A stretch of 63,913 bases of DNA, counting the filler, from Reclinomonas americana ATCC 50394 (taxonomy: Eukaryota), in assembly GCA_048213135.1 (NCBI GenBank). It is 13 parts of 13 records of this genome, joined end to end, with 100 filler letters (N's around TTAATTAATTAA, not from the genome) between each part and the next. Parts side by side here need not be neighbours in the genome. Positions count along the whole stretch, not along the records: positions 23,243 to 30,313 come from AFZH01017821.1; 12 more parts are not named here. One strand, given 5' to 3'. Under the pieces are notes generated by a model. That model was not told the DNA's origin and made no database searches. It was given only the letters and a program-made list of their open reading frames with translations. The translations under genes were made by a program, and so were the position numbers. Below are positions 14,527-60,815 of the stretch, piece after piece. The stretch's first letter is position 1, and each line of letters opens with the position of its first letter.

Positions 14527-15597
14527 TCACACTCTCGCATCCTCCCACCGAAACACCACCACCTCCGCCTCCTCCACCACAAAACACCGCAACACAATCT
14601 CCACCAGGCACCGACACTCATCCATCAAAGCCTCCTGCACCGCCGCCAGCGCACTCCTCGCCGCCACCTCCTCCCTCCGCGCCAGCACATGCGCCGTGGA
14701 CCACACCAACACCGCCCCATCCGCCCCACCCGACACAACATGCCGCCCATCCGCAGTGACGCACACCGACGACACCGCCCCGGTGTGACCCGCCAGCGCA
14801 AGCAACTGCTGCCCCTCTTTCGACCACACCTGCACGAGCTTACCACTGTCGCCAAACACGACATGCTGCGTGCCGACGGCCACACACGACACGCCACTCG
14901 CCAGGCCCTCCAGACGACGCACCTCGTCGCCACTCGCCAGCGCCCACAGTCGCACACTCTTTCCGGATCCGTGATCGCCCGTGACCACATGCCGCCCATC
15001 GCCGGTCACCGCTACACTGTACAGCCAGGTGTCGACACCGCGATGCCACACCTGCTCGCCACTGCCCATGCACCACACACGCACAGTGCCATCGGAGCCT
15101 CCAGAGACAAAGTGTCGCCCGTCGGGGGCGACAGCGACTGCCAGCACCCAACCTTTGTGCTCCCACAAACGATGCAACTCGTCGCCACTCTCCAAGCACC
15201 ACACGCGCACCGACTTATCGACACTGCCTGTCACCAGGCGCTTGCTGTCGGGCGAGATGGCCACTGCGCGCACTGCTCCCGTGTGTCTCTCAAACGAGAT
15301 GAGCAGGTCGCCGCTGGTGAATGACCACACGCATGCGCTGCGGTCGTCACTGCCGGAGACAATGAGCTTGCCGCAGGAGGACACGGCCAGAGCGCGCACG
15401 GACTTGGTGTGGCCTTGCAGGTGCCACAGCTCGTCTCCTTGTCCCTCCAGTGACCACACGTGGATGCAGTTGTCGCGTCCGCCCGAGAGGATGTGACGGT
15501 TGTCGGGAGTGACTGCCACGGCAAAGATGCTGCTGCTGGGGGTTGTGGTGGGGGTGGTGGTGGTGAGGCGGGTGCGGAGGGCGAGGGTGGGCAGCAT
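14527..15597 (-). CDS. Intronless WD40 protein (about 7 repeats) with a C-terminal helical motif
   Basis: Repeats such as GHTKSVRALAVSSCGKLIVSGSDDRSACVWS, of the same type as in the NLR. Tail VAARSALAAVQEAL...LVEIVLRCFVVEEA. Confidence 0.88.
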   Translation of the reverse strand: MLPTLALRTRLTTTTPTTTPSSSIFAVAVTPDNRHILSGGRDNCIHVWSLEGQGDELWHLQGHTKSVRALAVSSCGKLIVSGSDDRSACVWSFTSGDLLISFERHTGAVRAVAISPDSKRLVTGSVDKSVRVWCLESGDELHRLWEHKGWVLAVAVAPDGRHFVSGGSDGTVRVWCMGSGEQVWHRGVDTWLYSVAVTGDGRHVVTGDHGSGKSVRLWALASGDEVRRLEGLASGVSCVAVGTQHVVFGDSGKLVQVWSKEGQQLLALAGHTGAVSSVCVTADGRHVVSGGADGAVLVWSTAHVLARREEVAARSALAAVQEALMDECRCLVEIVLRCFVVEEAEVVVFRWEDARV

Positions 15598-16145
15598 GGC
15601 GGAGAGGGTGAAGGGTGGTCGGAGTGGGAAGGTGTTGTCCTGCACATGCGCGACGTCGCCTCACGCAGTGACGCAGAGACGAGGTGCCTGCCACTGCGAG
15701 GAAGCTGGAGACGGAGAGACACGAGTTCGTGGCTGGAGATGGAGAGACACGAGCTCGTGGCAAGTCCTTGATGAGTATCGTAACCATGTCCTGTTCGGGA
15801 TTGCCCTTCTTGGCCATGGTTTCGAAGCCTGTTAAGCTCTCACTGGCTTTGGCGAACCTTGATCTTCACCTTGGTAGCATACACCTAGCAGCAGCCTTGT
15901 GGGGTTTGCATCCTCTGCGATTGAGCTCCGCGAATTCGAATTCCGATGCATATGCTCCATTTCTCACATATTTTACCCTTGCATCCATGACCCGTGACCC
16001 TCGGCAGAACGCCCTGGAGGTCAAGACCGACCAATACCCCGCTCTGTTGATCACACAAACGTGGCCGCACTCACAAAGGCAACAATGAAGAAGCGAAAAA
16101 CTGGGATGGATGCCGTAAACAACCGTGCACTGTACATTCTCACTC

Positions 16146-19100
16146 TCAGTGGACCATGGTGAAGGCGTGCTTCATCACCCGGGTTATCTTGGGCATTCGC
16201 TTCCCGTTCGGCAGTGTCTCGCTGCGGGACTGCGAGATGGAGAAGGACGGGGTGAGTGAAATCAAGTTTTTCCGAGAAACGGCAATGAAGAAACGCAACG
16301 TAATCCAGTTGCATGAATGCTGGGGCCACACCCGGTGCGCCGCAGCCAGCGTCGCACTGCGCAGGCAAGGAGGAACAGGATGAGGGTCACGGTTCACACA
16401 AAGAGGCGTTTTCATGCAAGTCTCTCTTGCAGTGATGCTGACGTAGCTCCGCGTCTCTGCATATTATTGTCTCCTCTCACATACGCACTCCATTTCTTTC
16501 CTTCGCTCCTTCTCCGCCCTTCTCTCCCTCCCCATCACTTGCCACATGCGCGCTGCAGTTGCTCTCTCTCTCTCTCTCTCAATCTCTTTCTCTTTCGCCT
16601 CTTTCAGTTTCTCGATATCTCTTCCGATATCCTTTTCTCCTTGACTTCCTCTCCTCCAAACTCTCCTCCCACTTACTTCTCTCCTACGCACTGCGATTGC
16701 TCTCTTTCTCTCTCACATACACACACACTCTCTCTCTTCGCTTCCCTTCTCTTCTACCCTCCTTCCCCCTTCTCCCTCCCCACCTTTCCCTTTGTCCCCC
16801 TTCCTCTCTCCCTTCCCCTTGATACTCACCGCCACCCTCGTCCACTCCTCGCTATTCTTCACCCTCTGCGGGTCCTTCTTCTCCATCAACCTCCGCGCCT
16901 GCGCGCTGAGTGCCTGCCGCTTCGCCTGAATCAACTTTGGCCCGATCTTGGGGTGCGTGTACACGCGACTCGACTTGTAGCCGGGAATGAGTGCCTCCAC
17001 GTCCTCCACCTGCGTGAGCACCTTGCTTGGCGACAGCAGCGCACTGCCCTGCAACGAGAAGCCGTTTTTCGCGGGCGATGCCACCGCTGCTGCCTCCTCT
17101 TCGACGGGTGGTGACACTGCGAGACAGTGGATAAGAAAGGGTGGTGGAGAGGTCACTGAGAAAAGGGTGAGCGCACCTGCTCGTCGACCAGCAAGACCGC
17201 CGGCTGTCAGTGAGGGCTCGTCGGCTGTGTGTTTGCACAGAATGAGAACCATGAAAGCCCCTGCCTTCCCTCTCTCCAAAACTCACCTTGCCATCGCGCC
17301 TCGCATGCACCAATCGTGCCCACCAGATCTCGCACAAACTGACTGGCTGCCACGGCGCGGATCTCGCCCGTGCCTTGCGTGGCGACGGTCGGCGACGCTG
17401 CCACCATGCGCTTGCGCATGCCGAGCCGGCTGATGGTGATCACCTGCTCTTCCGCAACNNNNNNNNNNNNNNNNNNNNNNNNNNNNNNNNNNNNNNNNNN
17501 NNTTAATTAATTAANNNNNNNNNNNNNNNNNNNNNNNNNNNNNNNNNNNNNNNNNNNNAGGATGAGAACGCACCTCCCGACAGCATGACAAATCCGCTGT
17601 TGTTGGTGTTGTCGGGGCGTGTCGGTGCCACAGCAAAGCGTGCCGATACCGCCTCCATGCGTGAGTCGCCGTTCACCGTGCCCTTGAGCACGAAACTCGA
17701 GCGCGAGGCTGAGTTGCTTGTCACCGAAAAGTCGTCGCCGCGAATGCGTCCATCATTGCCGGCAACCGACTGGCGCATCGACATGACACCGATCACGGCC
17801 ACGGGAACGGCAGGCACCGACGCAAACTGGTACGCGGATGACACACTGACCAGCTGTGCATGACACGAAGTAAGCTGGGTGAGCAGTCGCGAGAGAGACG
17901 AGGATTCACAAAAATCACGCAACAGTTGAGCTGTTCTTGTTTACCGCATCCGACGCCCACGCTGCGCTTGTCAGCGTGCGCTGACCATCCATCGACAGAG
18001 CATTCGTCTGATGCACGTAGTACGCCAGGTAGCCTGCACATGCAGCAAAGCGGAGGGAAGATGATGAGTCACACACTTCAATGCCTTGTCCTTCATCGCT
18101 GTGAACGCAACTCAGCGTGATGGTGGGTCCCAGCTGGCCGTCACTTGACACGCCATGGCATCGAGTCGACAGTTGCGCCGCAGTCACCACCGGCTCCGCA
18201 CAGAATGCGAAAGTGCCGTCAGTCGGCTCGTTGGCAAGAGTGGAAATTGGGCCAGCGGCGCCCTGACGACCGACACTGGCAAAGCCGAGCAACACGCGCG
18301 GGCGGCGGTAGAACTCGCGAGCAAACGTGAACTGGATCGTGGTTGCCGTCACTGCCAGTGTTGACATGCTTGGCTTCGGGGTGGCAGGGCTGCTGTCCAT
18401 GTCGTCAACGGTCGACAGCGTTGATGTGGGCGCCGCGCTGCTGCTCGCACTCAGACCACTGGCCGTCATGAATCCGGCAGTGAATGACTCCCCCGACGAC
18501 ACGTACGGTCCGTTGTTGGCCGCCACACACAACTTGTAGGCACCGCCGCCACTCGACCCGTTCGGCGTGATGGTCGCGCGGAACACGCGGCAGCCAGTCG
18601 CAAACTCACACGTGTCGGCACCGGTACGCACAAACGACGCGCCAACACTCCCCGTCAGCGTCGAGTAGTCCGACAGAGTGGAGCAATCGACGCCGACCGG
18701 CACCAGCTTGAAGCTCGTGCAGTCGGTGAGGTTCTCAGTGGTGGAACCAATCACAATCGAGTTGGCAATGCCGTACTTGAGCACGGGCGGATTGGCAAAG
18801 GAGATCACCGGCGTCGATGAGGCGGCAGTCACAATGAGCGGGAGGGGTTGCAGGCGGTACACGGCGGTGCCACCGGCCTGGAACCTGGAGGTAGAGAAGG
18901 GCAAAAGTGAGTTAGAGAGATGGAGGATGGAGGCAGAGGGACGGAGAGGGAAAGGATGAGAGGAAGGAGAGGAGGAATCGGAAAAAGAAAAAGAGAGGGA
19001 GAAGTGGGGCGAGAGGGAGAAGGAAAGTGGAGTGAGCGTGTGATTAAGTCAAGAGACACGAAATGGAGTGCCCGAGAGGGAGAGAGAAAGAAGAACAGCA

Positions 19101-20021: not shown

Positions 20022-20128
20022 CNNNNNNNNNNNNNNNNNNNNNNNNNNNNNNNNNNNNNNNNNNNNTTAATTAATTAANNNNNNNNNNNNNNNNNNNNNN
20101 NNNNNNNNNNNNNNNNNNNNNNCTACTC

Positions 20129-22812
20129 TTGTCGATTTGTGGTGGCGCTGAGGAGAGAGTTTCACCTGACAAACTCGCTGTGGTTCTCTGTCGCAGTAAT
20201 CTGTCACGACTAGCCTCGTTCATCAAGTGCATGAGACGAGCCGTGCGCAAATTCGTGCGTTATGCCAAGGGTGCAGAGCAATATTTTGGGAAAGGTGTGT
20301 GTGTTGTTGCAGAGTCCGTGGTTCTCGCTTTCATTCTCCACCTCACTGATCTGTCAGCTCTTGCGAAAGGCCCGTGTGAGGACGTCAAAGTGGATACCTC
20401 CGCTGACGAACCCAGCGCGGACGATGATACTGGTGCATCGGGGTCTGGTGCGCCGGCCGAGGCCGACAAACTGGAGTTTTCAGAGTCGGCTTCTGATGTG
20501 TCAGCGCCTGGTGCATCGACTCCTGATTCATCGAATGTGGGTGGAGACACGCGGGCGTCGCTTGCAGAACTTGCCATGCTCACCTGTCCGTATCATGAGA
20601 GCACTGTGTCGCATCACAACCTGGCCGACATATTCCAGTGCTTCACGGATCACGGACTCCCGTCTCGGTTCGAGCACGTGATGGGAACCGTGCGACCCGA
20701 CTGCAATATTTCGGCCGCCGTGGGCGAGCAGTTCGAGGTGCTGTGCATGGCAGGAATTGCTTGCGGGCCTGCTCCAGAGCTTTTCCAACCTGCAGTCATT
20801 GACAAAATGTTTCGTAAGGTGCACGAGCGTTTTTGTTGTCGCGTGTTATTGTACCGCGAATCTAACTCGTTTGTGCACGAATTAGCACGGCGGCGTTCCC
20901 GAATACGTATACGGAGAAGCCGATTCGTGTCGGTCCTCGCGGCACCCGGTTCAGCGCCCTCAGAGTCGGCTTGCCAATCGCCTTCGGTGCTGACAGCGAA
21001 CACAAGGACTTTGTCAAGGTTGTGTGGAACATGACCGGCAACATGCTGATGATGGCCCACACATTGCGTGCCACGGATGCAAGACGTCAACTGCGCTGCT
21101 TCGCCATGCTGGCAACGGGTCAGTCCATCGCGTTGCTGGCGTTTCGCCTTGATCCGGCGCTGTGCGGCGATGGCGATAAATTCGCTGTTCTCGTTTCACT
21201 GGTGGGCACGTGGGTGCCGAGATTTGGTGCGTTTGTCCGCGCGCAGGCATTCGTGCTTGTGAGTCGTGGGTATTTTGTTCATCTTCTGAGTATTCTTACG
21301 ATGCAGGCGCAACTCAGGAGTCACTCGTGATTGCAATGACGCGAATGTTCTTGGCAATGTGTCGGAGTCAAGAGTTGCTCACGGAGGCTATTCGTGGTGG
21401 TCGGCGACAGCAATCTCTCCCCACGTGGGTACCCATCTCTTCAGATCCGAAACACCATGAAATCGGGAACAGTGCCAACAAGGTTGCAGAAAACACTCCG
21501 GCAAAACCTGCGGGACTGAGGCCAGCCACGTCGAGAAACCTAGTGTTTGGTGCGAAACGTCGCGTGGTGTTGCACGACGGTGAGTGACTTGTTCATGGCT
21601 CGATCAGCTGAACATTATTTTCTTTCCATTGCTGATCTGGGTCACGTTTTTGCAGATGGCTGCCGGCAGTGGGTCGTCAAGTGGGTCAACTGCAGCGAAT
21701 GTGCTCCGAGCGTTGTCGACGCTTTCGGGTGTCTGCACGAGGCTCAAGTACTTTTGCGGATTGCGTCGCCCGCGGTGCTCTCCATTCCTCGCGTACTCAA
21801 CTGGGGTCCGTTGCCGATCCCGATCCCCTCCAACATTGCCCACCGCCACCAATGGTTCGGGCTCACCACGCCGTACTATGGCAATGACTGGCCTCGCACT
21901 GTTGATGACGCGTGTGCATTGACGCGACACCTGCTGGCGGCGCTGGCGCACGCAGCTTCGCACGGTTACATTCACCGCGACGTGAAAGGCGACAATGTCT
22001 GCTTTTCGTCGCAGTCAATGGTGGCTGTGCTGGTTGACTGGGGCCACGCACGCTTCGTCGGAAACGGTGACTTGCCGTATGTCGGCCGTGGAGGCACCGT
22101 GGGCTACCTTGTTGCGCTCTGACTCGCCGCTTCCTGTCTGTTCCACGCGTTGTGTGCTAAATACTTGGGGGCGTTGACATGTACGCACATGTGCGCGCGC
22201 AGGCTCCGGAGTCGTTGCCAGATCCACTGGCGGCGACGGACGTAAGACGAGGTGGGCGAGTGGAGCTTCGCGTCAGATATGTGGAGTGCAGGCGTGGTGA
22301 TTGCCGAGGCGCTGCTGAAGCGGAAGCTGGTGCAGATCGATTCTTTTCTGCCTCACGTGGAGCCGATCGACTTGGCGACCACGCTCATCGAGTTGTTGCA
22401 CCAAGAGGCCGAGGAGCTGGCGGAGGCCGACAATGTCGCCGCGCATGCCCGATTCATGCAGGGCATTCAGCTTGTAAGCGCCTTGCTGATTGACAAGCCG
22501 CAGTGACGCCTGACGGCGCAAGAGGCACTGACTCACAGTTTCTGCATGCATGTGAGCCGCATGGAGTTTTCTGCTCCTGCTGGCGTTTCCGCAGCGGTTA
22601 CCGAACGCCCTGCTGACGCTCCGGCTGTGGCGGCCGCCGCCGTCACTGCTAGAATCGACTGCCATATCGGCGTCTCGAAACCTGACCCGGTTGCGAGTGA
22701 CGAGAACCAGCGCCAGGCAGCGTCGAGCGTGGCAACCGCACAGATGACGAAGGCAGTTCACGAGGAGCCGAGACCGATGCAAGTGCGGATTCCGCTGATG
22801 CCGAAACAGTGA
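20129..22812 (+). pseudogene. Ser/Thr protein kinase with long N-terminal extension, apparently disrupted
   Basis: WVVK, IHRDVKGDN, DWG, GTVGYL|APE, SDMWSAGVV and RLTAQEALTHSF are present. The frame changes between APE and DMWS (about 22203-22252) and an in-frame TGA sits at 22504-22506 within subdomain XI. Confidence 0.75.
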
Positions 22813-23258
22813 GGCGTGCAGCAGGCGGCCCACCACATACCCCTCAATATAGAGTAAAGAAGCTACTTCATGCCACCTTCCCGACTGGAGCGCACGTTGT
22901 ACTCGACATAAGTCGAGAAATGGCGGGAGAAAACAGCAATTTTCGCGCCCAAATCTCTGAATCTCTCTCTCAACACACACACATCGTCGCGAGTGCGATC
23001 GATGCTCGGGCAGATCGACTTTGAGGCGCTCTCCTATGGGTTGGAACGCGAGGCGCGATTTGAGGGTGTGTGCGGTTAACTGTGATTTCTCTCTCTCTCT
23101 CACTCACTCTCTCACTCTCTGTGTGTGCGTGCGTGCGTGTGTNNNNNNNNNNNNNNNNNNNNNNNNNNNNNNNNNNNNNNNNNNNNTTAATTAATTAANN
23201 NNNNNNNNNNNNNNNNNNNNNNNNNNNNNNNNNNNNNNNNNNGCGACGACGGAGGAGT

Positions 23259-23307
<49 letters not shown>

Positions 23308-23353
23308 CCTGTATATGTGTGTGTTGGTGTCTCACCTCGCGTGGGGTGAACAG

Positions 23354-24445
23354 GTTCTGAAAGGGCACACTCTCGAGGTCTGCTCCGTCACTGTCACGCC
23401 CGACGGCCAACACATCATTAGTGGGAGTGGAGACATGACAGTGCGAATGTGGTCACTGGGAACATGGAAAGCAGTGCGACTGTTCGAGGGGCACACCAAT
23501 GCGGTGACTTCTGTCGCCGTTACTCCCGATGGTCAGCATGTTGTGAGTGGCAGTGCGGACAAGACCGTGCGAGTGTGGTCACTGGCGAGTGGCGAGGAGG
23601 TGCGACGGTTGGAGGGTCACACAGAGGCCGTGCTTTCCGTCGCCATCACACCCGATGGTCAACGCATCGTCAGTGGCAGCTACGATCACACTGTAGGAGT
23701 GTGGTCTGTGGCGAGCGGAGAGATGGAGCAACAGCTACTGGGCCACACTGGGTCGGTGCGTTCCGTCGCCACCTCTCCCGACGGTCGGGCCATTGTGAGC
23801 GGCAGCATCGACGGCACTGTGCGAGTATGGCCTCTCGCGGGTGGCGAAGAGGTGCGAGACGTTACTCGTGCCAACTATCACGGAGTGTGGTCTGTTGCTG
23901 TCACTCCGGATAGTTCGTGCATTGTGATTGGGGGCCGCGACATGATGGTGCGCGTGTTTTCGTTTGCGAGTGGTGACACACAAGCTCGGCAAGTTCACGC
24001 GCTTCAAGGACATAGTGACTGGGTGTGCTGTGTCGCCGTCACTCCCGACGGTCAGTATGCAGCAAGTGGAAGCTACGACCGAAGTTTACGAATGTGGTCA
24101 GTGGCGAGTGGAGCCAAAGTGCGCCGCTGGTTTGCACACAGTGGAATCGTGTGGTCGGTCGCCATCTCTCCGGATGGTCAACACGTCGTGAGTGGGGGGG
24201 TTGACAAGACAATACAAGTGTGGTCCACGTTGCGCGGGCGTGCTGGGCTCGAGGTTGCGGCCGCGCGACTGGCGGTGGTGGCTGTCAATGAGCTGCTTGC
24301 GGAGCAGGAGGAGGAGAAGGAGGAGGAGGATGATGATGGTGACCGTCGTGAGTGGATCCTCGTCGATGTCGTGCTGCGGTGTTTTGTGCTGGAGGATGCG
24401 AGGATGATCGAACGGCGCTCGCCGGGGTGGTTGACGGATTTGTGA
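23354..24445 (+). CDS. WD40 protein (7 repeats), paralog of 14527-15597; 5' exon probably lost in gap
   Basis: Repeats such as GHTNAVTSVAVTPDGQHVVSGSADKTVRVWSLASGEEVRRL. Acceptor CAG at 23351-23353. Tail EVAAARLAVVAVNELL...LVDVVLRCFVLEDA. Confidence 0.9.
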   Translation, partial: VLKGHTLEVCSVTVTPDGQHIISGSGDMTVRMWSLGTWKAVRLFEGHTNAVTSVAVTPDGQHVVSGSADKTVRVWSLASGEEVRRLEGHTEAVLSVAITPDGQRIVSGSYDHTVGVWSVASGEMEQQLLGHTGSVRSVATSPDGRAIVSGSIDGTVRVWPLAGGEEVRDVTRANYHGVWSVAVTPDSSCIVIGGRDMMVRVFSFASGDTQARQVHALQGHSDWVCCVAVTPDGQYAASGSYDRSLRMWSVASGAKVRRWFAHSGIVWSVAISPDGQHVVSGGVDKTIQVWSTLRGRAGLEVAAARLAVVAVNELLAEQEEEKEEEDDDGDRREWILVDVVLRCFVLEDARMIERRSPGWLTDL

Positions 24446-24980
24446 CGTGCTGGCACCGTGGACGTACGCTGGTCGAGCGTCAAGCAAGAGGATTATGCGT
24501 AGCCCAGAGCCCCCCCCCTCTTATGAGTTTCTCCAGGGAATTCTGATCACTTCGTTGTCCTTCGCCCGGCATCTCGTGCCCGCATCAAGTGTCGTTCCCC
24601 AATGAATTTGACGATGTACACTGTATTTATCAAGTGGATGCAAACTGCCGTTGTCTCCAACGGCAGCCGCGGTGGCCTGGCACTCTGCCTCGCCGCCGGC
24701 ACCGCCACCGCCACCGGCACTCGATGCCAGCTCGTCGAATCAGCTGCACGGGGACGTTGATTTGGAGGAGGATGATGATGATGCTGATACATCGCAGTCC
24801 GATTAGTATGCCGCCGGCCGTGTCGGTCTCTGCTGCGAGTTCGGGTTTGTCGCAGGTGGTGGTAGAGAAGGAGTAATTAAGGAGCCACTGGAAAAAGTAC
24901 ACTCACCATCGTCGATAGTTGGCAACTGTTCACTACTCACAAGGCAACACTACAAACTGTCTTCAACCTATCCTCGCACA

Positions 24981-27900
24981 TCACCGCCGCGCCGGCGGTG
25001 GAGCCACAAACGTGTGGAATCCGTACCCCTCACCCGCATCCACGCCCTCCACTCGCACGCGGCACACCGGACACTCGCCACTCTTGCTTACCAGCCGCTC
25101 CGCGCACTTCCGGCACAAGACTTGGTGCATGCACGGACGCAGTCGCGTCTCGCGCAGTCCGTCGCACACCATGCACGCCCGCCGACACGACAACACCGTC
25201 AGGTCACTCAACTCGCTCGCCAGCTGTTGCGCCGTCGGACGACGTGCTGGTCGACCATCCAGGCATCTGCAGATTGAGCGTGTACGCCAGTCAGCGTGTC
25301 TCCTCGCAACACTCTCTGGGAAACACACAAGTACCTCAGTGCGAGTCGCACAATCCGCTCACACACAGGAGCCGGCCATGGTCGACCGACAGCAGCATCC
25401 GCCAGCTCCACCGCGGCATTGAGGAATGCTTCTCCGTCGTCGCCGTCAATGTCATCCATTTCCTCCAGTGTCTCCACTCGCCGATGCACCTCCTCAATCG
25501 GCAGGCCGCTGAACACTTGCAGGAGGACGAGACCGAGCGAGAACACATCCGAACTCAGTCGCAGCTGGCCATGCATGGCCTTGGGATCGGCATACTTCGG
25601 GTCGCCAGCAAAGTGCACTGACAAGTGCGTCTGTGCCATGCGCACGAGGAAGGGAAGGATGAGGGAACGGGAAGGGAGAGCGTGCAGGAATGGATCACTC
25701 ACTCCCTCGGTGCGGAACCAGTGCGCCACTCCCAGGTCCGAGATGTATGCCATTCCACTGTGGTTGAACAGAATGTTGGATGGCTTCAGGTCGCGATGGA
25801 TCACTGAGGGAGAGGGGGAACAAGTGAGTGGAACTATATGAGAGAAGGGTTGAGAACAGACACACGTACCATTCTGCGCATCGCGACAAACGAACAAAAA
25901 GACACGAGTCAGTCAACAAAGAGAATGATACCGGAACCACACGCATGATCTCCCTCACTCACATGCCTGCATTATCCGTAAGCACAAGGTGAGTCCAAAG
26001 AAATGGAGAGCAAAGCAACATACAACAAGATATTGGAGCGCAACTTATGCAGCGAGGCAACTGCTTCGGCACATCGCAGCATGCACGTCATTCGCGCCTC
26101 AATCGACATGGCCGGCAGTCCGCGCTCCGCCCACTGCAGCAGTCGGTGCGCCAAGTTGTGCTCACTGCAAATCACCTGAGTCAGTATACAAGAGCAGCAG
26201 ATGATCCCCACAGCGAGGCGTGGTGGCCATGGTGATTTCGACCAAGACAGAACAGGTCACATCCAAAACAATCAGTCTCTCTCTCTCTCTCTGTCTGTCT
26301 GTCACTCAGCCTCTACGTTACACATCCACTTGCTCCGTGCGATCTCTTTCTCCTCCTGCTTTCTCTCAGTCCGTCTTGCTCATCCCGCTTGCTCCGCTCT
26401 CTAATCTCTCGTAATCAATGTCATATCTACTACTCTCTGATCACCTTCCCTGTCGATCTTTGTGTCTCTCGCCTTTTCTTCTCTCTTTATCTCTCACAGA
26501 GTCAACCATGCTGATCGCGCTCTCAACAATCGCACCACTCTGCAGTCAATATATCTCTACTGTTCTCTGACCACCTTCCCTTCCTCTTTCCCCTTAAACT
26601 CACCTCATCGCCTCGAGCACCACACATCGCTTGCCGTCGTCAGACTCCGCAAACCCGATCAGCGGCACAACCCCAGCCACACTCACCGCCTTGAGCTTCT
26701 CCAACTGAGATGCACGCAGAGAGTGAGAGCGAGAAGACCACATTCTCCCTTCTCTGCTTCACGAACCTCATTGGAGAACGACTCGATGCACCACGGCAGC
26801 GCACTGTCAAACACCTTGATGGCCACACTCTGTCCGGCCCATTCCCCACAAAACACCTTGCCCTGTCCACCATCGCCACCCAGGCGCTCCGCGAAATTGT
26901 TGCTCATCGCCACCACTTGTTCCCATGAGAATGCCGTCAACGGCGCTGCGTTCATCAACAAGCAAACAAAGTGAGTCTCCAATCATCATCACACTTCCCC
27001 TTCCCCTCCTCCAGCCTCACGCACCCCGATGGGTGAGATCACGCTGAACGGCGACCAGATCAGCCTCGAGTCGCTGTGCTCGGTCATGTTCGCGCTGTCG
27101 CTGCTCGTCCACACGATCCAGCGCTTCCTGCAGCGCAGCCCGCGCGGCTTCCTGCTGCTGGAGCGCGGCAGTATGCTCCGCAATGGTCACTTCCTGCTGT
27201 TGTACGCGCTGTTGCCACTCGCTCATCTTCGCTCGCTGATCATCCAATTGTCGCTGCAACTCCTCCATCTGCTGTTGCACGCGAGGCACAGTATCGTCCA
27301 GCTGACGCGAGCGCTCCTGCCACTCGTTTGTTCGCTGCCGCCACTCCTCCTTCTCTCGCTGTGCCGACTCGACCTCCTGTTGCAGCTGAGCAGCAGTTTG
27401 CTCGTATTGCTGCACACGCGCCTGCCACTTGCTTGACTGCTGTCGCTGTTCCTCCAGTTCTTGCCGCACAGCGTCGGGCTGGCGGAGAGCTTCTCCCATC
27501 CTAGCAGCCTGGCCGACAGGGCCAGCCTGCTCGAAGGCGACAGAGGCGGAGGGTGTTCCAGATGCCTGCTGGGATGTGAGCGAACGGGTCACACGGAAGC
27601 AAAGGCTGGGCACCAACGAAACCGTTGATCCTGTTGGTGATTTCACAGCGTCGACAGCCACTGTGTCGGGGAGCAAGCGCGTAAGATGGGCGTGATGAGC
27701 AGAGGTGACACAACTTGAACTCACAGTTGGAAGAGCCGGGCAGACCTTGTTGCTTCGTCTTCCCCTCCTCCTCCTCGCCTTCTTCGTATGATACTCCTCC
27801 CTTGCGCCGAGCATCCTCAAGAGCAGCACGAACGTCATCCAACAACTTCCGATCGGCTTGAGTCGGCATAGTCTCGTCACCGAGACTTCGTCGCATCTCG

Positions 27901-29321
27901 GTCCACATCTCCAAGAGACGCTCGGCTTCCGCCAAGTTCCTGACGCCGCCGAGTTTCGAGAGGTGGAACGCAAGGTTGTGTACACAAAGCAGCGTGGTTG
28001 GGTGACAGTCGCCAGATCGTTCTCGTCGAAGAGGTAGCAACGCCCGCCCGATTTGAACTGCATCTCCAAAGCTCCCGCAGTCCGCGTAAGCGAGTGCGAG
28101 TTGGAACATAGTCTCCAACGAGGCGTCGCTTTCCCGTTCCTGCCTCTCCAGTGTATCACAAAGCACGGCAACAGCTTCCTGTTGTCGACCAGACAGTCGC
28201 AGGGCGGTGCCCAGTCTTGCTGACACGGCAAGTGTGCGCGAGTCTCCGGCACCATGCAGCTGTCTCCACCGCTCACGCGCATCCTCCAGTAGAGTAATGG
28301 CCTCCGACAAACAGGCCTCGCCGCCGACGCGAATAAGACTCTTGCTGAGGCGGGAAGCGCATTCTATAACTCGCTCGTCGTCAACGCCGTACGCAACGCG
28401 TGCCTGTGTCAATATCTCGCGACCGACGTCAACTGCCGCCTCGAAGTCACCGCTCTCGTGGAGCGCGTGGGCGAGGAGATGCATAGTCTGCAGCCTATCC
28501 GCGCCAGGACTGTCTACTGGAAATAGAATGCGTTGTCGGCTCTGCAGCGCGTCACGCAGCACCACGATTGCCTCGGGGTACCGACCGAGCTTGCAAAGTG
28601 CGTCACCGAGCAACCGCGCCGCTTGTGGTCTGACGGGATTCTCGTAGCCAAAAAAACTGAAGGGATTACAAACGCCAACTAAACCATTACCCTTGTACTC
28701 GACCGCGCACTCGAGGAGAGTCACAGCCTCAGTCAAGTTAGCCGTGCCGCCAGCTCCCATGAGAGCCACCGCAAGCTTGAAACCACTTAACCACCTTAAA
28801 TCCTCATCAACCCTCCACAACACGTCTCGGGCAACGTCCACAGCCTCCTCGTGCAAATGCGCGGTGGTGAGAGCGGCTGACAAATCGCCCATCGTCTGCA
28901 CCAGCAATTCGTCGGTGTTGCGCAGCACGCGTTTCATTCTCTCCACCGCAGGGCGCTGCAAATCGACAGCCTCCACGAATCGATGTGCTTCGAACAATTT
29001 CTTCCCCAGTGTGGCCGACACTGTCAGCGTCACCTTGTGGTCCTCACCAAACACCTGACTGTACCGCGCCAACAGTTCCTCGAGCACCGGAATCACACCA
29101 GCTGGGTCTCTCGAAGAAGAGAGACAGGTAACGTATTTGAATGCGGCCGGAATCGTCCACTTCTTGTTCTTGGGGCCGAGCACCTCGATAAAGTCGCGCA
29201 CACACTCGGCAACAAGTGGAGTTGCTGCGTCGAAGTTGAAATTGGGAGCCCTCATGAGAGTCATCGCTTCTTCGTACCGAGCAGTGGCTGCGGCCAGGCG
29301 TTGATCGGTGTTGCGGCTCAT
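24981..29321 (-). CDS. TPR repeats, coiled coil, IRAK/Pelle/RLK-like kinase and C3HC4 RING finger (multi-exon, with two 4-nt microexons)
   Basis: Kinesin-light-chain-type TPRs (VFGEDHKVTL, SGDCHPTTLLCVHNLA); Q/E-rich coil at about 27030-27500; FSWEQVVAMSNNFAERLGGDGGQGKVF, VAIK, HRDLKPSN, DLG, SDVFSLGLVLLQ, RRPT; RING CMVC...PCMH...CRKC...CPVC. All junctions were checked by hand and are in phase. Confidence 0.88.
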
Positions 29322-29614
29322 GGATTGCGTGGAAAGGGAGAGGGATTGAGACAGAGATGGAGTGAGAGCGAGAGAGAGAGAGAGAGAGCGGATGAGAGCA
29401 ATGAGGTGCAGTCTTCTTGCGTGTGCGTGTGCGTGTGTAGATGTGTGTGTGTAGTGGGACGGGGACAAGATTCTTTTCCTCGCCGTCTCTCACGCTATAA
29501 CACGTCCGCATACACTCTTTATATCACGACCGCTCCTGTCATCAGTTTAACTTCACATCCTCCACCTCGCTTCCCACCTCCACCCGTCGCCGTCGGTGTC
29601 AGCATTCCGTGTGA

Positions 29615-31921
29615 TTATGAATGGATCTCAACGAGCCAACACAGTCGCTGATTTCGCACGGTAACGCATCTCGGCCGTAGTGGGACCCGACGACCGTCTA
29701 CAGAGTGACACCAAAGTGAGCGAACCCCCAGGAAATCACATTTCCTTTTCGCACGTCGCACGCAACGATGCACGACCAGGCACAGCACCCGGCGACTGTG
29801 ACGACGGCTGCAGAATCGACTGCAACAGCATGCCGCCACGTGTACCGCTTCCCCGAGTTGCCCCCGCCGCCGCCGTCGCCGACGAAGCCGCAGCAGCTGC
29901 ACAATTGCAATCAACAAACGTGAGCCTGATGAGCGACTTCACATGCCGGCATAAAGAAAGCAAACGTACTTGGCAGCCGTCGATCTTGCGACGCTCTCCA
30001 CGTACGGTAATTGTCCATGGCAGACTGTGCCGCAGCCGACACTCTGCACACACAATCGTATGAGCTTCGCATTACAGGCAACAAGTATTCTGCGCGTCGC
30101 ACCCATCCTCAAACGACTGCAGCGGCGGCGTACGTGTGCCCGGTGCGGAACTGCGCGAGCGATCGGGCGTCAGAGCCACCGACCCGAATGGAGCCGGCAT
30201 GCGGCCGCCGCGTGACTGTATGAGACCGCCCTTTGCCATGTCAGCACCCACTGTGCAAGCACCGTGTCGCAATCCACACAGACACACACATACAGACACA
30301 CACACACAGACACNNNNNNNNNNNNNNNNNNNNNNNNNNNNNNNNNNNNNNNNNNNNTTAATTAATTAANNNNNNNNNNNNNNNNNNNNNNNNNNNNNNN
30401 NNNNNNNNNNNNNGGACGGGCCAGCACTGCCACCACCTACTCTTGACGGGGGCATAAGACGTCGCTTGATGGGCGACATGCTCAGCGTCATGGTGCCCTT
30501 CGGGTCGGCGATCGAGGACATGCCAACCGAATCGCCATTGGCCGACGCCAGCAATGCAGCCGAGAACCCACTGCCGCCGGCCGCCGCCGCCCCAGCCCCT
30601 GTGGACGGCACCATGGAGGGCAACAGGCTGGCGTCGCCCACGTACGCATTTCCGCTTCCCGAGCCAGCTGCGGCGCCACTCGCCACCGTTGACACGGTCC
30701 GCTCGCCCTGCTTCCATAGCCGCGGTTGCATTCTGTTGTGAACAACGAAAGTGAGTTTAAATCAATCGCCTCCCCACGACTTACGCTGCCGCGCAACTGC
30801 TTCAAGAAGTTCTGCTGCGGTCCAATCACACTGCCCGGTCGACATAGTCGCAGGTAGCCAATCACCTGCGAAAGGCGCACAGAATGTCGTGTCAATAATG
30901 GCATTGAGAGAGAAAGAGAGACGCAAACGTGGACACACCTCGGGTGCACTGAACCGGTAGTGCTTCATCAAGTAGCAGGCAATCAGCGAGCCGGTGCGAC
31001 CGAGACCGGCCTTGCAGTGCACAGCAATCGCCCCGTTGGACTGCTCGGCAATCTCCAGGAACCGTCTCACGATATTATCCGATGGGGTCGAGCCGTCGGG
31101 GAAGAACAGGTCGTGATGCGCAAAGCCGGCATCGAGGAATTTCCTTCTCTCGTACACCTTCTTGTTCAGCCGCACAATGGTCGTCACCCCGAGTCGCCGG
31201 AATACCTTCACGTAGTCCTCTGTGCGATGCGTGGTTGAGCAAGCGTGCAGGGGTCATTGTTTCCATCCTCGATAACACGGTGTGCCTGTCAACTGCAAAG
31301 TGCGCATTCTTTACATCTCTCTCTCTCTCTCTTCAAATATCTCCCTCGTTCTCTCTCTCACTCTATCTGTTTTTCTTTATTTCTCCATGCAAGTCTTGGT
31401 TCTGCATCACAAATCACAATGGCCTTCCAGCTCTCCAGAACTTCCGTTTGCTTCTTCGTCTTCTAAATTTCCTCTCTCTTCCTTCTCACTCACATGTTCT
31501 CTCTCTCTCTCTCTCTCATACACACACACACTCTCTCTCTCTCCATGCACGTCGCGGCTCCCGCTCTCCAGAACTTCCATTTGCTTCTTCGTCTTCTAAA
31601 CCTTTCTCTCTTCCTTCCCACTCAAGTGCTCTTTCTCTCTCTCTCACACACACACACACTCCACGCACGTCTGCTGCTCTGCAACACAAATCACAATAGC
31701 CTTCCAGATCTCCCATGCTTTCAATTGCTTCTTCTCCCTTCGCCTCACTCTCGCTCTCTCTCTCACCATCTGTGTTTGTGGTTCCTGCGGCGCTTCTCCT
31801 CATTCTCGCTGTCGCACATGCAAGTGTGCCACTCGGTCCATGTAGATTCATGCTTCTCGCCAGCGCCCTCTCTCTTGCTCTCTCTCGCACACACAAACAC
31901 AAACGCACACACACGCACACA

Positions 31922-31963
<42 letters not shown>

Positions 31964-32219
31964 CACAGGCAGACACACTGACAGACGCTCACACACACGC
32001 ACGCACAACACACATTCATCGCGTTCTATGTCTCTCTGGCAATCTGGGGTCGTGGCCTCGCGGCACCCGACCTTGTCCTTCTGTCACTGTCTCACTCGCT
32101 GCCTACCTGCTCTGTGTCACACCCTGAGCCACACACATATTCATCTCACACTGTCACATCGACGTTCCTCCTTTCCATCAACCCACCTCTCTTCAACACA
32201 ACCCCGGAGCACGGCAAAG

Positions 32220-32259
<40 letters not shown>

Positions 32260-33498
32260 AAGTCTCCAAAATGAATACCAGACACAGTAACAAGTAAAAG
32301 CATCAACGAGACCCACACACAATACCACACCGAAACAGAAACCAAACAAAGCACGACTCCCCATCCTTTTCCCTTCCCTTCCCTTTCCCTTTCCCCTCCC
32401 TTTCCCTTCCCCCATCCTTCTCCCTTTCCCTTTCCCTTTATCTCCCTTTCCCTTCATCCCCCTTTCCCTTCGCTCACCTACAATGTACGTCCTCAATCCC
32501 CCATCAAACTCCTGCGCCACCGCATTGGGCCCGGAAAAGGCGAGAAACTTGCCCGGCACGATCCAATTCATGTCGCCATTCTCCACCCTCTCCATGTGCT
32601 CATACTCGTCCACATCAAACTTGTCGTACTCGAAAAACTTGTTCTCCACCGCCCGCTGCATGCCGCGCAGACAGTCGAGAATCGTCAGGTTGTACGTGCT
32701 GATCCCAAACGACGCATCGCGGAACGGAATGAACGGCGGGTAAATGCCGACAAACGGCGCATACGCTTCCTCCGCCGACCGACCCAATCGCAGCAACTAT
32801 ATCATCGGTTTTGATGTGAGATACAGCTGGAAAAAAAGAAACAGGGGTGCGCGCCGAGTTTGCCTCACGCAACAGCATACAGGCAGATCAAGCACGCGGC
32901 ATTTGCTCTCTTGTGTCCATCGTGACTCGAGTAAAAGTAAATCCGGCGTGCCTCCGTCTGCCGAAATGCACGTCATGAGTGACGAAAAACCAGACCAAAC
33001 GGCTCACACTCCAAGTACAAAATCAACAACTTCTCTCTCTCTCTCACACACACATACACACCTTTCGCTTCTCATCCAACAGCTGACAAAAGCGGTAGGT
33101 GGAGCCGAGGTGAAGCGGACCAAAATCGGCGAAAAAGGGCTCGTAGAACAACACCTCGTCGACCGAGAAGAAGTGCTCTTGATCCGAGTCGGCCGGAGCG
33201 GACTTGAGCGAGATGAAGTAGAGCTTATCTGCACACACGCACACACACACAAAGAGAAAGGAGAACGAGAAGACGACGTAAGCACTCTCCGAACAATTGC
33301 ACTGTCAGAGAGAACTCTTTGCGTGTGTGTGCGTGTGCTCACTGTTTGCCTGTCACTCACTCTGTGCTCTCTTGCTGTGTGAGAGAAACAACTCTCTCTC
33401 TCTGTTCTCTCTGTTGCTCTCTCTCTGTGTGTGCTATTTGTGTGGCACGCTGCACACCGACCTTTGATGAACTCAATGGCCCCAGACAAGTCGCTCAT
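29615..33498 (-). CDS. CDC14: Dual-specificity phosphatase CDC14; 3' low-complexity exons beyond gap 30314-30413 are less certain
   Basis: [56 protein letters not shown] and [10 protein letters not shown]. Confidence 0.95.
31408..31720. repeat. Degenerate intronic tandem repeat, unit about 135 bp
   Basis: ctctccagaacttcc.tttgcttcttcgtcttctaaa occurs at about 31431 and 31564; cacaaatcacaat occurs at about 31408 and 31686. Confidence 0.7.
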
Positions 33499-33820
33499 CT
33501 CGTGTGGAAGTGTGTGTAAGGCGCACAGAGAAGGCGCTCTGTGAGAGTGATTTTGTGAGAGACAACGCACGTGGACAGTGCTCGCTCTGTCCATTGCACG
33601 GTTTGCCATCACACGCGCTTTGTTGTCGGTGTTTGTGTGTCGCGCGCGTCTGTGTGTGTGTGTGTGTCTACACACGTCTTGTGAGCAGACAGTGAACAGG
33701 CACGCGCGCGTGTGTGTGTGNNNNNNNNNNNNNNNNNNNNNNNNNNNNNNNNNNNNNNNNNNNNTTAATTAATTAANNNNNNNNNNNNNNNNNNNNNNNN
33801 NNNNNNNNNNNNNNNNNNNN

Positions 33821-35731
33821 CCGGTGGGGGATATGCGGGGCACGCGGGCGCTGCTGTCGGCCGCCGAGGGCATTCGGTGCTTCTCGCCGACGCACGGCAA
33901 CGACTTTGAGTTCCGTCCGTTTCAGGCACACTTGTTGGGGTCGCCGGCGATTGCAATGACGCCGCATGGTGGCGTCTCGGCGTCGCGCATGAATGTGTTT
34001 GATCCCATGTCGCCGCTGCTGCAGATTGGTGGAGGTGCGTGCGGTGTGCTTGTGTTCAACTGAAGGTGACAAGTTGAATTGACGTTTTTCCTTCTCTGAT
34101 ACAGTTCGATCGCCAACCTCCCGGTCACCACGACACGACGAGTACTCGCCCTCACGCGTTGATCCAGTGACAGGCAAGGCGAAGAAGCCGCGCATGGGAT
34201 CACTTGGAAGTGGTGCGTCCTCATTTCTTGCTTGCCATACCGTTGTGTTGAAAGTCCGCTGAAGTGTGTGTTCTCTCTCCCCTTCCCCTTCTCCCTCTGT
34301 CTGCATTCTCTCCCCTTTCGCCTTCCTCCTTCCCCCTTTCCCGCTCGTCCTGTTTGCCTTCCTCTTTCTTATTTGTTTCCCCCTTCCCTCTCTTTCTCGC
34401 GTTTTATCTGTCTCTTCTCTCTTCCCTCTCCCCCCTCCCCTCCCCCTTTGCCCTTTCCCCTTTCCCCTTTCCTTTCTCCCCTTTCCCTTCCACCAGATGA
34501 CGACGAGGACAGCGAGCAATGGGTGATTGTGAAAATGCCGTGGAGTGCATTCAAGACAACTCTCGAACCCATGCTCGTCCGCCAAGACATCCCGCACGAC
34601 GTCGAGTACGTGCACCCGGTGGCGGCGGCATTCTCGGACCAGATTAATCCCACCTCCGACTCGCTCTCCAACCCCGGCATCATGGTGCACGAAAGCACGC
34701 CGACGCCAATGGACGAGGACGACGAGGACGACCTGCAGCAACAATCAGCGGCAGCGGCAGCAGCAGCCGCCGCCGCCGCCGCTGCCGGTGGTGGTAGCTC
34801 GGCTACGGTGCTGGCAGCCGGTACCACATTAACGGTGCCGTCGGCGTACCCCATACCCGAGTACAGCAACGACGAAGAAAATGACGACGAGGAGGACGAT
34901 GACGACGATGAGGACGAGACGGATGATGACGACGATGACGATGATGACGATGACGAAGAGGAGGAGGAAGAGGAGGAGGAGGAGGAGGTGAAGCCCACAC
35001 GGCGACGGAGAGCAGCTGCCACTGCGTCGACGGCGTCCGGCCGGAAACCACGTGGAGGTGGAGGCCGTGGCGGTAAGCGCGGCGAATCTTCCATCTCTGC
35101 GTCCTCCAGCCCACGCTCTCCCGGCACGGCGGCGAAACCACGACAAAGACGAGTGTCGGCCGCTGCTGCGGCTCGTGAGGCTGCTGCCGCGGCCGCCGCT
35201 GCCGGTGGTTCTGGTATGTGAAGAGAACATCTCTTTATCCTTCCTGCCTTTCCTCACCTCTCCCCTCTTCCGCAGGTGCCACGCCCGCGCCAAACTCCAA
35301 GAGGAGGAAACGCTCGGAGAACGCAAAAGTGCCCACCGATTCCGCCGGCCGCGAAATCAAGCTGGGTGCGTGGACGGTGGAGGAGGACGAGAAGCTGGCG
35401 CAATTGGTGCACGAGGTCGGTGCACGACACTGGAGCAAGATTGCGGAGAAGATGCCGGGTCGGCGTGGCAAGCAATGTCGCGAACGCTGGTTCAATCATC
35501 TCGATCCAACTGTCAAGAAGGAGGGCTGGTCGCACGAAGAAGGTGAGCACAGAATCGCACGTTGCATGAACAAAGAAGCTGCGCAGTCTGACGACAACGT
35601 GATGCCTGTGCAGATTTGCGTGTTATTGAGTTGCACGGCAAGTACGGCAATCAGTGGAGCTACTTTTCGAAAATCATTGCCGGTCGCACAGCGAACGCCA
35701 TCAAAAATCACTGGAATTCCACCCTCAAGAG
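33821..35731 (+). CDS. R2R3-type MYB transcription factor, truncated by gaps at both ends
   Basis: GAWTVEEDEKL...WSKIAEKMPGRRGKQCRERWFNHLDP...WSHEED...GNQWSYFSKIIAGRTANAIKNHWNSTLK, preceded by SP/TP-rich and acidic exons that splice in phase. Confidence 0.92.
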
Positions 35732-35751
35732 GTGTGCCTTCTTTCCCCTTG

Positions 35752-35786
<35 letters not shown>

Positions 35787-36357
35787 CTCTCTCTACTACT
35801 NNNNNNNNNNNNNNNNNNNNNNNNNNNNNNNNNNNNNNNNNNNNTTAATTAATTAANNNNNNNNNNNNNNNNNNNNNNNNNNNNNNNNNNNNNNNNNNNN
35901 GACGACCACCACAGCCACTGCGGCGGCTGCGCCGGCAGCACCGGCAGCAGCAGCAGCAGCAGTACCGCCACTTCCACCGCCACCACCACCACCATTGGCA
36001 AATGGCACTGCGGCAGCTGGTGGCGACGATGCGGGGGCGAATTCACGGAAACGCGCCATTGATCAAGTGGATGCGGCGGGAGCTGACTCTTCGACGCCGG
36101 CGTCGGAGGCAACGAACGCAGCTGCCAGCACCGGGGAACCACCAACAAAGATGGCGCGGACAGCCTAGTGAGATGCGAGGGAGTGGCGACGAATGGTGTT
36201 TATGTTTTGCTTTGTTCTCTTCGATTTTCTTGCGTCGGTGTGTGTGTGTGTGTAGTAAGGTGGCGGCGAGCCGACGGACGGGGCGGCGTTTTTCCGTCGT
36301 GCTTCTCCAAAAACAAACAATGTGGCATTACAAAATAAGAACAGTCTACTATTTTTT

Positions 36358-55029: not shown

Positions 55030-55516
55030 TCACTGGGAGAGAGGCAAACGAGACAAACGACGGAAGGGTGGCGAGCATTATTTGTTTGTGTTTGTGTGCC
55101 AGTGAGTGAGAGAATGACGCGCACGTGCTCTCAGCGTTTTGTCGATGCGCTGCTTGTGCTGTGGATGCTGATGTGTGAGTGGAGACAGCGTTCTCTGCGG
55201 TTCCTTGTCTCTCATTTCTCTCTCTCTCTCGCTCTCTCCTTCTCTGTGTGTTTGTGCGCGCGTGTGTGTGTGTGTTACTCTGGGAGATATCTGCAGTTCC
55301 TCCTCTTCTCCTCTCTCTCTCTCTCTGTGTGTGCCTGTCTCTTGTGTTCGTGTCCTCTTTCTTCACCATTCTCTTCTCCTTTCTCTCTCTCTCTCTCTCT
55401 CTCTCTNNNNNNNNNNNNNNNNNNNNNNNNNNNNNNNNNNNNNNNNNNNNTTAATTAATTAANNNNNNNNNNNNNNNNNNNNNNNNNNNNNNNNNNNNNN
55501 NNNNNNAGAGAGAGAG

Positions 55517-57142: not shown

Positions 57143-60815
<3,673 letters not shown>

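Follow-up and report, generated by a model that had tools for sequence, protein, structure and literature searches.

The window analysed here is a stretch of 63,913 nucleotides (nt) from the genome of the protist Reclinomonas americana ATCC 50394 (Eukaryota; GenBank assembly GCA_048213135.1). It consists of 13 separate contigs joined by 12 filler linkers (N44-TTAATTAATTAA-N44), and adjacency across a linker need not mean adjacency in the genome. Our subject is a kinase gene on the minus strand of one of these contigs (AFZH01017821.1; 7.07 kb, positions 23243-30313, without an internal gap), and above all two consecutive exons of only 4 nt each that are predicted to lie within its catalytic core. 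The gene (29321-24981) begins with an ATG at 29321 and finishes with a TGA at 24981-24983. Its 10 exons form a coding sequence (CDS) of 3324 nt that encodes 1107 amino acids and has a single terminal stop. In transcript order, and with splice-site strengths in position weight matrix (PWM) bits, its parts are:

Exon 1, 27725..29321, minus strand: start codon and TPR region; an open reading frame (ORF) starting with ATG, with TPR_12 at 99.2 bits and TPR_10 at 69.6 bits, supported by the CDS check.
Intron 1, 27661..27724, minus strand: 64 nt, GTGAGT...ACAG; the sole phase-compatible join between the TPR and coiled-coil frames found by hand.
Exon 2, 27025..27660, minus strand: Q/E-rich coiled coil; an ORF with only weak coiled-coil family matches, supported by the CDS check.
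Intron, 26946..27024, minus strand: 79 nt, GTGCGT...ACTCAC...CGCAG.
Exon 3, 26767..26945, minus strand: kinase N-lobe (glycine loop, VAIK lysine, C-helix Glu), from translation.
Intron, 26705..26766, minus strand: 62 nt, GTTCGT...TCTCAC...CTCAG.
Exon 4, 26604..26704, minus strand: kinase subdomains IV-V.
Intron, 26165..26603, minus strand: 439 nt, containing a (GA)n microsatellite.
Exon 5, 26045..26164, minus strand: helix E region, ending ...CTG CAT AA (phase 2).
Alternative in-frame donor, 26018..26023, minus strand: GTATGT, 5.0 bits; if used, it would add 21 nt (7 residues, LRSNILL) to exon 5 and shorten the intron to 57 nt.
Predicted intron, 25967..26044, minus strand: 78 nt; donor GTTGCG, -1.3 bits; branch-like ACTCAC at 25994-25989; acceptor AATGCAG, 7.8 bits.
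Predicted microexon 1, 25963..25966, minus strand: GCAT, 4 nt, with CAG before and GT after.
Predicted intron, 25874..25962, minus strand: 89 nt; donor GTGAGT, 6.8 bits; branch-like ACTGAC at 25913-25908; T-rich tract; acceptor GCGCAG, 8.9 bits.
Predicted microexon 2, 25870..25873, minus strand: AATG, 4 nt, with CAG before and GT after.
Predicted intron, 25804..25869, minus strand: 66 nt; donor GTACGT, 5.0 bits; branch-like ACTCAC at 25829-25824; acceptor CCCTCAG, 5.4 bits.
Exon 8, 25703..25803, minus strand: starts TG ATC CAT CGC GAC; catalytic loop HRDLKPSN and DLG (the DFG equivalent).
Intron, 25631..25702, minus strand: 72 nt, in frame and stop-free.
Exon 9, 25335..25630, minus strand: kinase C-lobe; closest solved chains IRAK4, E = 1e-11.
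Intron, 25267..25334, minus strand: 68 nt, GTACTT...GCTGAC...CTGCAG.
Exon 10, 24981..25266, minus strand: end of the kinase domain, RING finger and TGA stop; zf-C3HC4_3, 38.8 bits.

The protein is composed of TPR repeats, a coiled coil, an IRAK/RLK-like kinase domain and a C-terminal RING finger, in that order. The Pfam family Pkinase (PF00069) matches the ORF that holds exons 8-9 at 43.8 bits (cut-off 31.7), the match beginning at exon 8; the N-lobe exons on their own gave no Pfam match. The zf-C3HC4_3 and TPR_12 matches lie above their Pfam cut-offs of 27 and 30.1 bits, and the spliced kinase domain reaches 191 bits on a local kinase profile built from 131 of 182 fetched homologues. After IRAK4, the top solved chains are SymRK and BRI1, and the top named proteins are plant receptor-like kinases (34-37% identity). 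Catalytic roles in kinases are played by the glycine loop, the VAIK Lys, the C-helix Glu, the HRD Asp, the Asn of the catalytic loop and the DFG Asp. In translation the domain shows a G-D-G-G-Q-G glycine loop, VAIK, HRDLKPSN and DLG for DFG, together with a divergent APE motif (A-D-P-K), and from these residues it looks catalytically competent. Retention of the 72-nt intron (25631-25702) would add 24 residues without breaking the frame. On the opposite strand beneath the microexon region, five plus-strand ORFs are without a Pfam match, and no Rfam match occurs there.

Between exons 5 and 8 lies a gap of 241 nt, within which the minus strand reads CTG CAT AA/GTTGCG...AATGCAG/GCAT/GTGAGT...GCGCAG/AATG/GTACGT...CCCTCAG/TG ATC CAT CGC GAC (slashes denote predicted splice sites). 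The original prediction had placed two tandem microexons at 25966-25963 and 25873-25870; their sequences, flanks and coordinates are exact on this strand, with the neighbouring exons ending at 26045 and starting at 25803. When both are included the translated product is LHKHNVIHRDLKPSN, with the junction LHKHNVIHRD, and without the 8 bases that they add the CDS does not stay open from ATG to stop. The accompanying claim that skipping breaks the frame is borne out by translation. Omission of microexon 1 alone gives a stop right after LHKM and omission of microexon 2 alone a stop right after LHKH, in each case as residue 879, because the TGA at the start of exon 8 comes into frame; without either, translation is frameshifted and stops at residue 956. 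Stops also arise on retention of the 78-nt or the 89-nt intron; the 66-nt intron, if retained, adds 22 amino acids in frame and stop-free. Inclusion of both microexons is needed for the reading frame as well as for the conserved kinase motif, and since any failure to splice in the pair results in a premature stop, the pair would be obligatory.

Splice-site signals were scored with PWMs trained on nine introns that were curated by hand with donor strength ignored: six from the kinase gene, placed by frame logic, and three from a CDC14-type phosphatase gene elsewhere in the window, placed by protein alignment. Eight of the nine are 62-104 nt long and one is 439 nt, and their branch-like NCTNAY motifs lie 16-35 nt from the 3' end. 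Pattern-based intron training was rejected as confounded (GTGAGT is the reverse complement of the branch-like ACTCAC), and two intron finders based on codon usage were too noisy for training. The three gap introns (66-89 nt) fall within the curated length range, as do their branch-like motifs, which lie 21-35 nt from the 3' end, and their T content is equal to or above that of the curated introns. The acceptor before GCAT exceeds the 95th percentile and that before AATG stands at about the 99th among 483 AGs on the contig strand; among 485 GTs, the donor after GCAT exceeds the 95th percentile and that after AATG stands at about the 90th.

How far these signals single out one parse was assessed by enumerating GT/GC-AG paths with up to three introns through the gap. 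There are 5232 such paths, of which 1066 are in frame and stop-free (620 of 2887 in a narrower count), and frame compatibility by itself therefore proves little. On the kinase profile, the parse with both 4-nt exons and the donor at 26044 (hereafter a 4+4 parse) comes first of the 1066, at 191.0 bits. A joint score was then formed from profile bits, PWM bits, a branch term and a length term, less 8.2 bits per intron; this cost is an assumed value of about one intron per 300 coding bases (the kinase gene has nine introns in 3324 nt). The joint scores of the parses of interest are:

Rank 1: 4+4, donor 26044, 186.6.
Rank 2: 4+4, strong donor GTATGT at 26023 (7 residues longer), 184.4.
Rank 3: 4+4, GC donor at 26041, 179.6.
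Rank 4: 4+10, 178.9.
Rank 19: single 8-nt exon AATGGTAC, 172.2.
Rank 21: single 8-nt exon GCATGTGA, 172.0.
Rank 113: single intron 25985-25804, the highest on the profile among stop-free parses with one GT-AG intron, 162.7.

The top three parses differ in the upstream donor alone and all use both 4-nt exons. With four different subsets used for training, the top one or two parses were always of the 4+4 type, and the order of donors 26044 and 26023 was reversed on removal of the CDC14 intron that has a GTTGCG donor. In the 75 of 122 homologue domains that allowed measurement, the LH-to-HRD histidine spacing is 2 residues in 1, 3 in 1, 5 in 14, 6 in 6, 7 in 2, 8 in 37, 10 in 13 and 12 in 1, such that the product from donor 26044 (spacing 5) and the variant from 26023 (spacing 12) are both possible.

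The 8 bases could instead be supplied by only one microexon of 8 nt, either GCATGTGA (25966-25959, donor GTGAGG, followed by a 155-nt intron) or AATGGTAC (25873-25866, donor GTGTGT, following a 171-nt intron). The spacing of the product would be the same, and the residues before HRD would read K-H-V-M-I or K-M-V-L-I. These parses are in frame and stop-free, a single microexon is a priori likelier than two, and their profile scores (188.1 bits for GCATGTGA and 185.8 bits for AATGGTAC) are near that of the 4+4 parse. Their joint scores, however, fall well below 186.6, and they lie 7-17.5 bits under the best 4+4 parse in all four training subsets. Their introns of 155 and 171 nt are longer than eight of the nine curated introns, and each parse leaves a complete, high-scoring acceptor-donor pair with a branch-like motif unused inside an intron, for which the chance is about 0.005 per approximately 160 nt. 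We regard a single 8-nt exon as decidedly unlikely. Slightly less likely still is a mixed arrangement, in which GCAT is used and the second small exon is longer, for example the 10-nt AATGGTACGT (donor GTGTCT, two residues more), or in which some other combination includes at least one microexon of up to 10 nt. The 4+10 parse is fourth overall (profile 185.8 bits) and second in one training subset, but its donor is the weaker one (2.5 versus 5.0 bits) and it scores 4-9 bits under 4+4 in every subset.

It is also conceivable that the gap contains no microexon, and that a single intron is removed at 25985-25804 (donor GTGCTT), leaving a 19-residue hydrophobic insert between LHK and L-I-H-R-D, or a GC-AG intron at 26039-25804. 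Both parses are in frame and stop-free, and the peptide read through into the gap holds S-N-I-L, which is reminiscent of the catalytic loop. Against them stand profile scores of 175.0 bits for the former, the best single GT-AG intron, and 179.4 bits for the latter, compared with 191.0 bits; the joint rank of the former, 113; and a spacing of 24 residues from LH to HRD, which none of the 75 measured homologues shows. Like an intron, the inserted segment is rich in T. Its ORF gives no Pfam match, the segment has no nucleotide similarity to the catalytic-loop exon, and both microexon signatures would have to be due to chance. This reading is extremely unlikely.

As an observation on the same segment, positions 26044-25985 on the minus strand, read in the frame of exon 5, encode L-R-S-N-I-L-L-Y..., which resembles the catalytic-loop sequence L-K-P-S-N-I-L-F 240 nt downstream; the resemblance may be due to chance. 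Duplication of the catalytic-loop exon was considered as its source and rejected, there being no nucleotide similarity (an alignment score of 15 was reached in 668 of 2000 shuffles).

Chance occurrence of the signatures was examined in several ways. The consensus YAG-N4-GTRMGT occurs six times in the window on both strands, compared with 3.65 expected, and 14 of 100 shuffles reach six. Two of the six sites are the two microexons, 93 nt apart on one strand; by an arithmetic estimate, the chance of two such consensus sites in a given 241-nt stretch is about 2e-5. A looser PWM signature (an exon of 1-12 nt between an acceptor of 5 bits or more and a donor of 4 bits or more) is found 61 times in 127.8 kb on both strands, or about 0.12 expected per 241 nt. 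In dinucleotide-preserving shuffles restricted to the interior of the gap (first 9 and last 40 nt fixed), none of 4000 gave an in-frame, stop-free parse reaching 186.6 or 184.4, the best being 181.9; in a separate set, none of 400 reached the 4+4 scores. These shuffles bear on a further alternative, namely that the gene is a pseudogene or the assembly in error, in which case the gap would be one 241-nt intron, the frame truly broken and the microexon-like sites coincidental. In favour of this alternative, the assembly is fragmentary (13 short contigs). However, every other exon is open and every other intron canonical. The gene retains intact kinase, RING and TPR domains, and none of the 4000 shuffles rescues the frame equally well. 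We consider a pseudogene or assembly error very unlikely.

Several points weigh against the use of both 4-nt exons or of the donor at 26044. Two consecutive 4-nt exons are a priori very rare, and the profile lead of the 4+4 parse over the two 8-nt-exon parses is small (2.9 and 5.2 bits). One of these two has a GTGTGT donor, a type that the CDC14 gene uses twice. The PWMs derive from just nine introns, six of them from the kinase gene itself, and the intron prior and length model are assumed. The first donor, GTTGCG at 26044, is weak at -1.3 bits, and its score leans on the GTTGCG intron of CDC14 in the training set; when that intron is left out, the 26023 variant ranks first. When the 1.26-kb CDC14 intron was used as a control, scored with neither the branch nor the length term, spurious microexon parses reached up to 4 bits above the simple parse. 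Finally, the searches of proteins, metagenome contigs and genome contigs gave no orthologue or paralogue in which conservation of the microexons could be tested. The CDC14 control implies that a difference of a few bits is noise; the margin of 14 bits by which 4+4 leads the single-8-nt parses exceeds this, and the margin of 2 bits between the two upstream donors does not.

GTTGCG is the best-fitting donor of the CDC14 intron 32873-32797, where it reproduces the 8-residue spacing of two homologues. This unusual hexamer is the best-fitting 5' splice site in two unrelated genes (26044-26039 and 32873-32868, both minus strand), and in both an in-frame GC alternative lies 3 bases further on.

In the search for relatives, 33 of the 4919 candidates from a word-indexed protein search reached E <= 0.001 (best identity 38%), and an exhaustive search of representative proteins gave 2678 matches at the same threshold, none above 51% identity among the 150 matches listed. 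Scanning metagenome contigs for the exon-9 peptide yielded 311 pattern matches, none of which was confirmed. A scan of genome contigs yielded 165, of which one was confirmed over only 12 residues in a bacterial metagenome-assembled genome and is spurious. An introner or repeat origin of the three gap introns was also considered and rejected: they have no mutual similarity, and nothing similar occurs elsewhere in the window beyond a (GA)n tract.

Taken as a reading of genomic sequence, the proposal of two obligatory 4-nt exons gives the best parse in every in silico test, and both exons are probably used in the main mRNA. The exact product of the original prediction is less secure. LHKHNVIHRD has the top joint score but hinges on the weak GTTGCG donor, with the strong GTATGT donor (7 residues more) nearly its equal, and we propose it as the main product only tentatively, at somewhat less than an even chance. 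The upstream donor may be 26044 or 26023, and both might serve as alternative 5' sites.

Splicing of the gap would remove three complete short GT-AG introns and so join AA, GCAT, AATG and TG. The 8 joined bases would supply three residues between LH and the V-I-H-R-D strand and restore the frame. Four bases cannot hold exonic enhancers, and exons this short would have to be recognised through their flanking introns rather than through signals of their own. Each of these introns appears to be self-contained: it has its own donor, carries a branch-like motif 21-35 nt before its end, and closes with a strong acceptor. Almost the whole of each microexon lies in sequence that U1 and U2AF would normally touch at the adjoining donor or acceptor. 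Intron-definition splicing is a reasonable inference, given that the flanking introns are short and self-contained (eight of the nine curated introns are 62-104 nt). Plant microexons suggest by analogy that splicing here is probably stepwise, each microexon first being fused to a normal exon.

The possible on/off switch raised in the original prediction is speculation. Skipping of a 4-nt exon gives an immediate TGA and does not keep the frame, and is in this respect not a regulated, frame-preserving switch. In its boldest form, the proposal would make this the shortest consecutive exon pair described, acting as a double frame-lock, such that regulated or stress-dependent skipping would toggle between the full TPR-kinase-RING enzyme and either a kinase-less TPR/coiled-coil scaffold or a target of nonsense-mediated decay, with the choice of 26044 or 26023 as a second, in-frame variation; we hold this to be unlikely. 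Were the 4+4 arrangement true, it would record three intron positions within 8 coding bases.

Turning to the remainder of the window, the G+C content is 0.50-0.63, (GA)n/(CT)n microsatellites occur at many contig ends, and the source genome is intron-rich. The linkers occupy the following positions:

6942-7041, 17459-17558, 20023-20122, 23143-23242, 30314-30413 and 33721-33820.
35801-35900, 52443-52542, 55407-55506, 58606-58705, 59899-59998 and 62513-62612.

Further strong acceptor-donor pairs no more than 12 nt apart (PWM at least 7 and at least 5 bits), some of which may be microexons and others chance, are found at:

Plus strand: 15677 (7 nt), 34025 (10 nt), 46299 (7 nt) and 51910 (11 nt).
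Minus strand: 45529 (6 nt), 31678 (10 nt), 29795 (12 nt), 2420 (2 nt) and 1019 (3 nt).

The other genes and domain exons recognised in the window are:

30790-33229, minus strand: CDC14-type dual-specificity phosphatase gene; catalytic exon 66% identical to animal CDC14 and 64% to Chlamydomonas CDC14; introns 33061-32958, 32873-32797, 32477-31220 (about 1.26 kb, with microsatellites) and 30938-30866.
55930-56049, plus strand: complete 5S rRNA gene (Rfam RF00001, 103.2 bits), the sole Rfam match in the window.
21544-22119, plus strand: second, divergent kinase-like gene with Y-I-H-R-D-V-K-G-D-N (Pkinase 31.0 bits, just below the cut-off of 31.7); its catalytic-loop region is without an intron.
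1210-5328, minus strand: WD40-repeat gene, a single ORF of 1373 residues with at least 12 WD40 repeats in its C-terminal half.
14530-15660, minus strand: WD40-repeat gene.
23243-24442, plus strand: WD40-repeat gene, truncated at the contig start; it and the kinase gene lie tail to tail.
35179-35799, plus strand: Myb DNA-binding domain exon.
48685-49521, minus strand: SET domain exon.
39057-40229, plus strand: TFIIIC B-block domain exon.

The repeats of the three WD40 genes are very similar. A scan of 122 further ORFs, each at least 100 residues long, gave no matches other than the Myb and SET domains and the N-terminal DSPn domain of CDC14; the TFIIIC B-block had come from the first scan. A microexon inside the CDC14 gene was considered and rejected as unneeded, as the single intron 32477-31220 fits. 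Within that predicted intron, just upstream of the acceptor at 31220, positions 31253-31221 (minus strand) encode P-L-H-A, matching the conserved Y-P-L-H-A of homologues. An in-frame TGA stands directly before this stretch, which no AG acceptor could bring into the CDS. Possible explanations are an acceptor that has shifted and left a relic, non-canonical splicing, or an error in the sequence.

Microexons of comparable size are known from several systems. In plants and green algae, a survey of 10 species reports 2398 exons of 1-15 nt, about half of which are not multiples of three and hence put a gene model out of frame when omitted (PMC8831610). The same survey describes validated 1-nt exons in APC11 and VPS55, a 4-nt rice exon and an adjacent pair of 5 and 12 nt detected by reverse transcription polymerase chain reaction, and it reports that the introns flanking plant microexons are removed consecutively, often the downstream one first. 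Plant microexons are described as having canonical flanking introns with strong signals and as being routinely missed by annotation (PMC8831610, PMC11096116). The exons predicted here resemble these plant and algal microexons (Yu et al. 2022, Feng et al. 2024) in being far shorter than 15 nt, not a multiple of three, bounded by AG and GT, and frame-keeping; they differ from the 5+12-nt pair in that both are 4 nt, with one 89-nt intron between them, and in being predicted from DNA sequence. The switch microexons of animal type in humans are, by contrast, given in the same survey as mostly multiples of three (PMC8831610).

Human MPC1 has a constitutive 4-bp exon, the recognition of which is reported to depend on proximal intron sequence; that exon lies among long vertebrate introns, and an 'exon island' (exon-definition) mechanism was shown for it with minigenes (PMC9929638). 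The exons described here share with that of MPC1 (Koh et al. 2023) a length of 4 nt that is not a multiple of three. Unlike the single MPC1 exon, they would be two in a row among introns of 66-89 nt, and intron definition is what we infer for them. The coding region of RPS24 is reported to have, at its 3' end, consecutive microexons of 3, 18 and 22 bp that undergo alternative splicing (PMC12207440). The kinase gene is similar in having several microexons consecutively in one gene; unlike those of this vertebrate ribosomal protein gene, its microexons would be obligatory, frame-keeping pieces in the core of an enzyme.

No description of two consecutive 4-nt exons was found by phrase searches of open-access papers. 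In the micro-exon genes of schistosomes, the CDS consists mostly of many symmetric microexons (multiples of three) and encodes a secreted protein. The kinase gene is unlike these in that only 2 of its 10 exons are microexons, each of 4 nt, and in that its product is a multidomain kinase of cytoplasmic type. The gene structure is extreme but precedented, and it establishes no new mechanism. If confirmed, two obligatory 4-nt exons separated by an 89-nt intron, in a catalytic core, would lie at the extreme end of what the spliceosome can accomplish. The locus would also put microexon-aware aligners and gene finders to a stringent test. An annotation that lacked the 8 bases would be frameshifted or truncated ahead of the catalytic loop. 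In Chlamydomonas, Pkinase is reported as the most frequent motif encoded by microexons (PMC8831610), and the present gene would add a protist example to this pattern, in which kinase domains often house ultra-short exons.

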